A stretch of DNA of 13,427 bases, from positions 1 through 13,427 of the IMG/VR virus record IMGVR_UViG_2529292909_000008; one strand, given 5' to 3'. The notes beneath the pieces are model-generated. The model ran no database searches. It worked only from the letters and a program-made list of their open reading frames with translations, and had not been told where the DNA came from. Every line of letters begins with the position of its first letter. The stretch's first letter is position 1. Below, piece after piece: positions 6,741 through 7,632 of the stretch. A program made the translations under genes and the position numbers. This stretch comes from a virus (Duplodnaviria; Heunggongvirae; Uroviricota; Caudoviricetes).

Positions 6741-7478
6741 TCATTCACTCTCTTTCAAACCAGTTTTAACTGTTTGGGGTTTTGGGTAAGGCTGGACTTT
6801 GAATAGCTTTATGTTGAGGCGTTTTCTGGCCCTCTTGTTCAGAAACCGGATGTAACGAAACTGTCGGAACTTATGAACACTGGCTCTGTCGATATTAGCC
6901 CTCAGATGTTCACCTCGTTGTCCGCCTCGTTTAATGGCATTCCTGCAAATCTCGTGATACCACTCGCCATCAAGTTCATAGAATGTTGATTCATGGCTGC
7001 CTACATAATCAAAATTGCTTGCCTGATACACGACACCAAGACAGCCACAACGCTCATCTGCAAACGACTGAACCCACTGTACCTGCGGATAAAGCTGTCT
7101 GATAAGTTTGAGTGCGTAACTGATGGCCCTTGATTCGGAGTTTCTCGGCATACAGTCATGCAGCCATAACCGGTTAAGCTCCATATATTCGCGGTTCTGC
7201 GTACCGGTTACGACGCGCGCTCCACTGTTTGGATTAAGGGCATAACCCCATTGCATTACGCCAACCAGCTCTCGTTCTGAAAATATACCCAGATGAAGGT
7301 AGGAGTTATTTACGAAACGGTGGCTGTAATGTTTATTGACGATGACCAGTCGGGCCAGCCAGCAACTTATTGTCTCAACCCGTAACTCACGGGAGCCATA
7401 ACCGACGATATTGTCGTTATAGAGAATAAGTTCAGGCGTGCTGATGATACGGGATGTAACTTGCTTTCTGTTCCCCAC
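6741..7478 (-). CDS. mom: Mom-like DNA modification protein (adenine modification, anti-restriction); true start uncertain
   Basis: 245-codon ORF that is the last gene before the prophage end and overlaps the 3' end of a Com-like zinc-finger gene, the arrangement seen in phage Mu. The first in-frame start after the upstream stop is GTG at 7478. Identity rests mainly on context and on vague recall of Mom sequence. Confidence 0.65.
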
Positions 7479-7632
7479 GACAGGATTTCCTTGTGTATGT
7501 GGGGTGCTCTGTGGCGCTCGGAGATGTGATTTGATTGAGGGTTTTACAGCGCGGACATTTTACTTCCAGATAACTGAAACTGGCCCGTGCCAGTAACTTG
7601 TTGCAGTGTCGGCACCGTATGTTTCGATACAT
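7432..7632 (-). CDS. com: Com-like zinc-finger translational activator of mom
   Basis: 66 aa, [34 protein letters not shown]...: a CxxC...CxxC zinc ribbon closely resembling Mu Com (MKSIRCKNCNKLLFKA...IRCPRCK from memory). Strong Shine-Dalgarno (AGGAGG at 7644-7649, minus strand); 47-nt overlap with the mom start. Confidence 0.8.

Follow-up and report, generated by a model that had tools for sequence, protein, structure and literature searches.

The com and mom genes of bacteriophage Mu, which encode a translational activator and a DNA-modifying enzyme, have a close counterpart in a 13,427-nucleotide stretch of caudoviral DNA (IMG/VR record IMGVR_UViG_2529292909_000008, positions 1 to 13,427; "the window" hereafter means this whole stretch), in which two open reading frames (ORFs) of 66 and 245 codons overlap at positions 6741-7632. 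We conclude that this region very probably represents the com–mom operon of a Mu-type, Sp18-like transposable prophage that has integrated into Escherichia coli yaiW, with control and chemistry like those of Mu. The module is an ordinary, intact copy of Mu-type com–mom that is already known and annotated, and the Prokaryotic Genome Annotation Pipeline (PGAP) names the identical ORFs "Mom family adenine methylcarbamoylation protein" and "Com family ... regulator". Its transcriptional wiring is the only departure from Mu. The coordinates and lengths of the two ORFs, the 47-nt overlap and the GTG start of the second ORF, as given in a first-pass annotation that had been made from the letters alone and had proposed a com–mom module here, agree exactly with the ORF list.

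Identification of the mom and com products

The 245-residue product matched the Pfam family PF25680 (Mom) over the entire profile (positions 1-202/202), with an E value of 2.4e-77 and a score of 259.6 bits compared with a cutoff of 27.1. It also matched the solved Mom structure in the PDB (8bv8, "Methylcarbamoylase mom") with an E value of 1e-123, and it fell in PHROG 1384, "Mom-like DNA modification protein". The identity was 79.5% to Mu Mom and 77.6% to the Mom protein of phage D108. The first-pass annotation had called this ORF Mom-like and had made the call depend on a similarity search against Mu Mom; the search returned a strong homologue by PF25680, by the 79.5% identity and by 8bv8.

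Mutagenesis has indicated that R111, S124, D149 and R151 of Mom are essential and that W48, H58, Y59, Y159 and W181 are strongly needed for activity, all in the 241-residue numbering (PMC13219725). The numbering of the window protein is that numbering minus 8, because the 241-residue numbering starts 10 codons upstream of the Mu GUG and the window protein has 2 extra residues in its N-terminal region. With this offset, the corresponding residues of the window protein (W40, H50, Y51, R103, S116, D141, R143, Y151 and W173) were invariant with those of Mu and D108 (9/9 tested residues). A helix-turn-helix-like insertion in the GNAT fold (residues ~175-209) is also required for Mom activity (PMC13219725), and the alignment of the window protein to 8bv8 was ungapped, with high identity, through this insertion, and had no insertions or deletions in the catalytic core.

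The codon differences between the window mom and three E. coli copies, which are ~4% diverged, were 22-29 synonymous compared with 2-7 non-synonymous. The comparison with Mu mom gave 97 synonymous and 44 non-synonymous differences, with 127 differences at third positions compared with 43 at first and 34 at second positions. The mom protein is thus under purifying selection, and the homology together with this substitution pattern excludes a chance ORF. Judged from its sequence, the 245-residue product is Mom, a predicted GNAT-fold enzyme that modifies adenine at N6.

As for the 66-residue product, it matched Pfam PF10122 (Com zinc ribbon) with an E value of 2e-12 and a score of 46.8 bits, compared with a cutoff of 22.9, and PHROGs 6417 and 13819 ("translational regulator" and "gpCom control of modification") with E values of ~5e-13. 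It was 44% identical to Mu Com, and C7, C10, C26 and C29, which make up two CxxC pairs, aligned with the Mu cysteines. The N-terminal CCCC module of Mu Com coordinates zinc (PMC6483171). The window ORF is assigned as Com, a predicted CCCC zinc-ribbon translational activator of mom, and the Com-like zinc-ribbon gene of the first-pass annotation is borne out by a PF10122 score above the cutoff and by the four cysteines kept. A PDB sequence search found no Com structure, and NCBIfam release 20 gave no model match for either the Mom or the Com product, although PGAP names both. In the experimental literature, Com is an RNA-binding translational activator (PMC6483171); the PGAP label for the Com homologue is "Com family DNA-binding transcriptional regulator", and the label in strain Sakai is "transcriptional regulator" (locus L001 6820-7020, equivalent RefSeq records).

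The two coding sequences are in different frames and share 47 nt (7478-7432+1). Of 12 further loci with a com gene, 11 showed the same layout, with com directly upstream of mom and overlapping its start; the degraded locus L014 did not. The features discussed here are compiled in Table 1.

Table 1. Features of the com–mom region and of the adjoining part of the prophage, in window coordinates.
Feature	Position	Strand	Description
com coding sequence	7432..7632	minus	66 aa, ATG start, 201 nt
mom coding sequence	6741..7478	minus	245 aa, GUG start 7478-7476, stop 6743-6741, 738 nt
com Shine-Dalgarno AGGAGG	7643..7648	minus	10 nt before com ATG; read from sequence
Translation-inhibition structure (predicted)	7473..7504	minus	CCCCAC (7504-7499) pairs with GUGGGG (7478-7473); 20-nt loop with inner helix
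Putative Com-binding hairpin GCGC[CACAGA]GCAC	7504..7517	minus	6-nt loop, C-G closed, CC(N)3GAG; one C.A mismatch in stem
Inverted repeat AATCGATCG-N7-CGATCGATT	7676..7700	unstranded	perfect 9-bp repeat with Dam sites GATC 7693-7696 and 7680-7683
Right end of transposable prophage	6613..6740	unstranded	terminus TATAGCGCGG... at 6613; three inward-facing putative transposase-binding repeats
TTTGATACCGA repeats	6630-6640, 6652-6662, 6687-6697	inward-facing	mirror other end of complete prophage
Divergent ORF	7747-8046	plus	PHROG 26524 (unknown function), E=1e-43
DUF826 gene	8484-8738	not given	follows DUF1378 gene
DUF1378 gene	8774-8968	not given	follows esterase-like gene
Sialate-O-acetylesterase-like gene	9101-11157	minus	SASA domain + DUF6645; cargo between invertase and com

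Start codon of mom

Upstream of residue 1, the mom frame stays open as far as 7559 and contains no ATG, GTG or TTG before the GTG at 7478. Counted manually on the translation, an in-frame ATG first comes at codon 75, and a start at this position was rejected, as it would delete the essential residues W40, H50 and Y51. A start equivalent to the upstream in-frame AUG of Mu was also considered, and none exists in the window. Mu and D108 have this extra ATG ten codons upstream of the GTG, with no counterpart in the window lineage, so that GUG 7478 is the only start option. The annotated start of Mu mom (AF083977 35907) is itself a GTG and aligned with window 7478, and the crystallised form of Mom, a delta-10 protein that begins at the GUG position, is active (PMC13219725). 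The homologous start codon, compared across 14 com–mom loci (of enterobacteria, Neptunomonas, Azospirillum and others), was GTG in 8 and ATG in 5, and the GTG start is the ancestral arrangement. The first-pass annotation had found no ATG near the 5' end and had given GTG 7478 as the first start, both of which stand, whereas its remark that the start was undefined can be withdrawn, with this GTG aligned to that of Mu and lying in the conserved inhibitory hairpin described below.

Concerning com, an AGGAGG element precedes the gene in Mu as it does in the window. The minus strand also has an out-of-frame ATG at 7638-7640, which follows the AGGAGG by 2 nt, precedes the com ATG by 8 nt and opens a 26-codon ORF overlapping com; it is probably not used as a start, given its too-short spacing to the AGGAGG.

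Predicted RNA elements for the control of mom translation

In Mu, the GUG start of mom is sequestered in the stem of a translation-inhibition hairpin (PMC6483171). Fold prediction around the mom start of the window, which had been proposed in the first-pass annotation as a check, yielded a start-sequestering hairpin with a Com-type hairpin directly upstream of it. Both the minimum-free-energy structure and the centroid contained the inhibitory hairpin (-12.6 kcal/mol, z=-2.3), and in a 115-nt context the pairs of its stem had probabilities of 0.98-1.0. In the predicted fold, the mom GUG forms part of the 3' arm of the stem, and the mom Shine-Dalgarno sequence AAGGA (7492-7488) lies in the loop, where it is partly paired by the inner helix. 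The CCCAC/GUGGG stem was common to Mu, D108 and the enterobacterial loci L005, L008, L009 and L013, all with shorter loops. Thus, the suggestion in the first-pass annotation that the overlapping arrangement fits translational control is upheld in that the GUG lies in a conserved inhibitory stem, as in Mu.

The motif and geometry recognised by Com, CC(N)2-3GAG in a 6-nt loop closed by C-G, are known from systematic evolution of ligands by exponential enrichment (SELEX) and footprinting (PMC6483171). The putative Com-binding hairpin of the window, whose loop is identical to that of L013, adjoins the inhibitory structure on its 5' side. Hairpins of this type were found 30-39 nt before the start in Mu, in Edwardsiella, Scandinavium, Apirhabdus and Azospirillum, and in two Pseudomonas transposable phages. 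In an alignment of the hairpins of 9 phages, 97.2% of the cells were paired (35/36), with both-side changes at 3/4 pairs, a count that is biased towards structure in that the 9 hairpins had been picked by a pattern in which closure by C-G and pairing at 3 or more of the 4 positions were already required. Sliding the pairing partner in this alignment destroyed the pairing, and the outer pairs covaried from E. coli to Pseudomonas phages. The sole unpaired cell of the 36 was the C.A mismatch of the window itself.

No observation contradicts the identification of the operon, and besides that bias the Com-binding stem is a weak point of it. In the window lineage this stem carries the C.A mismatch, is predicted to be only marginally stable (-0.4 kcal/mol compared with -2.4 in Mu), and has an outermost pair whose formation competes with that of the outermost pair in the inhibitory hairpin. 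A weak Com hairpin in both Mu and the window is, on the other hand, as expected for a protein-stabilised site, and both hairpins were invariant in the diverged E. coli copies and in Sp18. By analogy with Mu, the Com protein of the window would bind this RNA, in which the target motif is present. Rfam has no family for the com–mom leader or the hairpins.

Upstream region and transcription

The comparison with the Mu promoter region was anchored on the GATC sites. The ATCAATTAAA...ATCGATC-N9-GATCGATTA block of Mu is kept upstream of com in the window, and ATCGATC-N9-GATCGAT is common to the window, Mu, D108, L007, L008, L013 and L014. The two GATC sites of the window repeat are homologous to the two com-proximal sites of the Dam/OxyR control region of Mu; two of the three Mu Dam sites are kept, with Mu spacing and flanks, and the distal site reads TATC and has extra bases. 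Passages of PMC3378877 and PMC4461284 describe, for Mu, a GATC region upstream of the promoter that is bound by OxyR when unmethylated, and a role of Dam.

Between the conserved sites and com, the window has less in common with Mu, which is a weak point of the Mu-like reading. In the window, 47 nt separate the com ATG from the nearest GATC, compared with 77 nt in Mu, 75-85 nt in four other loci and 50 nt in Edwardsiella (L005), and a ~30-nt Mu segment, comprising the C-binding site TTAT-N6-ATAA, a poor -35 element that this site overlaps and a T6 run, is absent; the -10 of the Mu promoter is itself weak. In a sister prophage (L004), the upstream regions of the lysozyme gene (lys) and the protease/scaffold gene (I) share TTTCTGAnnTYCCGCAAAnCCnGCCCC, ~10 nt and TTAYGCTG (L004 17290-17370, 25480-25545), a pattern that we regard as a candidate signature of late promoters and of activator binding in Sp18-type phages; this motif is absent upstream of com even at 3 mismatches. 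A consensus scan of the minus strand at 7640-7900 found no sigma-70-like promoter for com, and the Mu-like -10 candidate AAGATA of the window is not kept in the sister E. coli copies. Two hand-picked promoter candidates for com, AAAGAT (-10) and, further upstream, ATGACT-17-TATCAA, were not conserved or not convincing and are not claimed here.

It may be possible, although we consider it doubtful, that the com–mom promoter was remodelled in the Sp18 lineage, so that the GATC palindrome abuts or overlaps the core promoter and methylation/OxyR or another factor, not C, gates transcription. For the window, this would mean an intact coding module behind a promoter without C dependence that is gated mainly by Dam methylation of the palindrome or by another factor, which we likewise hold to be rather improbable. 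The shortened distance to the com ATG, to which that in Edwardsiella is similar, the missing counterpart of the TTAT-N6-ATAA/-35/T6 segment and the absence of the lys/I motif are in its favour. A terminator-like hairpin (7933..7904), located between com and the upstream genes, suggests that com–mom would not simply be read through from upstream, and com would need its own promoter because of this separation. However, the mom promoter of Mu (Pmom) itself resembles other late promoters weakly, C acting there by a different mechanism (PMC4461284), and the absence of the shared motif is therefore weak evidence. Furthermore, the promoter scan gave no site, so that nothing positive supports C-independence, and the toxicity of mis-expressed Mom (PMC7261163, PMC3378877) speaks for late expression under tight control. 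Taken together, the transcription of the window operon is unlikely to be more than a variation on the scheme of Mu.

Two further features of the upstream region were observed. Five GATC sites are present in the 260 nt upstream of com (7640-7900), compared with about one expected, and three of them are located beyond the conserved pair, at ~7780-7850. The divergent ORF of the plus strand starts 114 nt from the com ATG, and the GATC palindrome sits in the divergent control region between them. This divergent control region is reminiscent of the divergent momP2 of Mu.

Prophage end and insertion site

The mom stop (6741) lies 128 nt inside the prophage end at 6613. All E. coli matches to the com–mom module begin at window 6612/6613, and their flanks differ, including a fimbrial usher, a tail fibre, an oxidoreductase and sorM, among others. 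A shared boundary with differing neighbours is the signature of a transposable phage. The host flank to the left of 6613, as recognised by eye from the translations, we take to be sbmA followed by the first 54 codons of yaiW. The prophage cuts yaiW after codon 54 at 6612/6613 (window 6450-6612, plus; sbmA immediately upstream). The same yaiW insertion was found in none of the complete E. coli genomes of the collection, the best matches all starting at the phage end. The termini of the window phage family are T(A/G)TA(A/G)C, with three inward-facing TTTGATACCGA repeats on each side. The location at the prophage end, which the first-pass annotation had proposed, is thus confirmed by the common match boundary, the cut yaiW and the three TTTGATACCGA repeats.

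Ends of the Mu type were considered and rejected, as the Mu transposase-site consensus gave 19 matches compared with 15 expected in the window, no match lay close to the end, and the right ends of Mu and D108 aligned poorly with it. In two separate insertions of the phage family, the host duplication at the junctions appears to be 4 bp, TTAG in NCCP 13905 (L004 6830-6840, 46075-46085) and TAAA in Sakai (L023 5965-5975, 44720-44730), with an off-by-one possible because the termini were inferred from junction comparison only. Mu makes a 5-bp target duplication.

The sister copy and the Sp18 element, each ~39 kb, carry a repressor, a Ner-like protein, a Mu-type transposase with its ATPase, and Gam, and continue with a Mor/C-family late activator before the lysozyme gene, Mu-like head and tail genes, an invertase, the cargo, com and mom. 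In the sister prophage, PGAP places a "tRNA-OTHER" feature inside the head-morphogenesis region (L004 24772-24851, minus).

Relatives and distribution

The com–mom module is present in ~207 of 5,426 complete E. coli genomes (~4%), including that of O157:H7 Sakai, in which it belongs to Sp18 (NC_002695.2 5078705-5079596), with ECs_4997 as com and ECs_4998 as mom. Sp18 encodes the Mom and regulator homologues at the Mu position (PMC3299994) and is predicted to be intact (PMC2669165). Its gene lengths (201 and 738 nt) and 47-nt overlap are the same as those of the window, com is 98% and mom 96.5% identical at the DNA level (98.8% for the Mom protein), and the Com hairpin, the inhibitory hairpin and the right-end sequence are identical. 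The neighbouring genes also match, namely the invertase, the esterase-like gene, the DUF1378 and DUF826 genes and the divergent ORF. The two elements differ in their insertion site, which is sorM in Sakai and yaiW in the window, and by a small number of base changes near the putative -10 that precedes com, and the divergent ORF is truncated and the esterase-like gene frameshifted in the window.

Mu (AF083977 35768-36602) has the same com-mom order, with an overlap of 50 nt compared with 47 nt in the window, and shares the GUG in the inhibitory stem, the CC(N)3GAG Com hairpin directly upstream and the location of com–mom ~115-128 nt from the right phage end. The Com proteins, in addition to their 44% identity, differ by a different tail and small insertions, and the inhibitory loop is 11 nt in Mu compared with 20 nt with an inner helix in the window. 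Also missing from the window are the in-frame AUG that Mu has 10 codons before the GUG, the distal GATC, and the segment with the C site, the -35 and the T6 run. Furthermore, ~3.6 kb of cargo separates the invertase gene from com in the window, whereas gin directly precedes Pmom in Mu, and the transposase end sequences are unrelated.

More distant relatives were found in the Pseudomonas transposable phages JD024 and PAN70 (Casadabanvirus) and in prophages of Edwardsiella, Scandinavium, Apirhabdus, Neptunomonas and Azospirillum, in which a CxxC...CxxC ORF overlaps the mom start and a hairpin xxGC[C-N3-GA]GCxx, with covarying outer pairs, is located 30-40 nt before it. The identity of their Mom proteins is 50-80%, and several have an ATG start. 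In the non-enterobacterial com–mom loci, the inhibitory pairing uses sequences different from those of the window and Mu. In FluMu, Pnme1 and phage B3, whose genomes are Mu-like, a right-end gene for DNA modification is under the control of a Com homologue (PMC3299994); that downstream gene is an unrelated N6-adenine methyltransferase, whereas the window has a true Mom. In Aeromonas phage pAEv1818, a Mom homologue with 70% identity follows the antiterminator Q gene (L020 412-1302), with no com gene and no Com-type hairpin upstream of it, which indicates that Mom also travels without its translational activator.

Cargo genes and integrity of the module

Between the invertase gene and com, the window carries the sialate-O-acetylesterase-like gene and the DUF1378 and DUF826 genes, a trio reminiscent of the gene block that follows stx in lambdoid Stx phages. 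Compared with the 684-aa sister copy, the esterase-like gene is split into ORFs of 499 and 163 aa by two single-base insertions, and represents either a pseudogene or the result of sequencing errors. The divergent ORF (7747-8046) is flagged as truncated by PGAP, the Sp18 version (ECs_4996) being 154 aa.

The split esterase-like gene, the truncated divergent ORF and the failure of the scan to recognise a promoter for com would fit a silent passenger in a decaying prophage, with com and mom still open but no longer expressed or needed. We regard such decay as improbable, given the strong purifying selection on mom within E. coli (22-29 synonymous compared with 2-7 non-synonymous differences), the regulatory RNA that is invariant across diverged copies and the presence of the element at many different chromosomal sites, which points to recent transposition. 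Sp18, moreover, is judged to be intact (PMC2669165), and the rest of the window's own prophage lies outside the window.

Proposed mechanism and chemistry of the modification

The operon of the window would, by analogy with Mu, be expressed in late lytic growth as a bicistronic com–mom transcript from the ~115-nt region upstream of com. Com would be translated from its own strong ribosome-binding site, while the translation of mom would be blocked in cis, with the GUG held in the 3' arm of the stable hairpin and the Shine-Dalgarno sequence in the structured loop. Com would then bind the small hairpin (loop CACAGA, CC-N3-GAG) that abuts the inhibitory structure on its 5' side, and its binding may open or remodel the inhibitory hairpin, so that ribosomes would start at GUG 7478.

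Mom is now known to use Gly-tRNA(Gly) as the donor of a glycine that is attached to the N6 of adenine, with a subsequent rearrangement (PMC13219725). The activation of Mom by Com and the modification of adenine, both stated in the first-pass annotation, are retained, and the mechanism is updated by this glycine transfer and rearrangement. In the window phage, a dimeric GNAT-fold Mom would carry out this glycine transfer on adenines of double-stranded phage DNA, the product would rearrange to N6-carbamoylmethyl-adenine, and the packaged DNA would resist many restriction enzymes (PMC13219725; PMC6483171; PMC7261163). A Mom with a donor or product different from that of Mu (another aminoacyl-tRNA or target base context) could be imagined, because ~20% of the residues differ from Mu Mom, the window protein carries a 12-residue C-terminal extension and the donor-specificity determinants of Mom are not yet known (PMC13219725), but this is highly improbable, as all known essential or important residues are identical, the catalytic core and the HTH-like insertion are free of indels, and an identity of 79.5% greatly exceeds the values at which GNAT enzymes usually come to differ in specificity.

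Implications

The region represents a functional-looking anti-restriction module of a mobile Mu-type prophage, and as such it matters little beyond correct annotation. Its lineage nevertheless provides comparative material for questions about Mu. The lack of the upstream AUG is natural comparative support for the GUG as the conserved mom start, and the 241-residue numbering of Mu Mom includes 10 residues that the window lineage does not encode. The covariation of the Com hairpin from enterobacterial to Pseudomonas phages supports the hairpin over the duplex model of Com recognition. The promoter region, which differs from that of Mu, is usable to ask which layers of control are essential, and, if the doubtful C-independence were true, a com–mom operon that naturally does without C would reveal which layers of the redundant control of Mu are dispensable.

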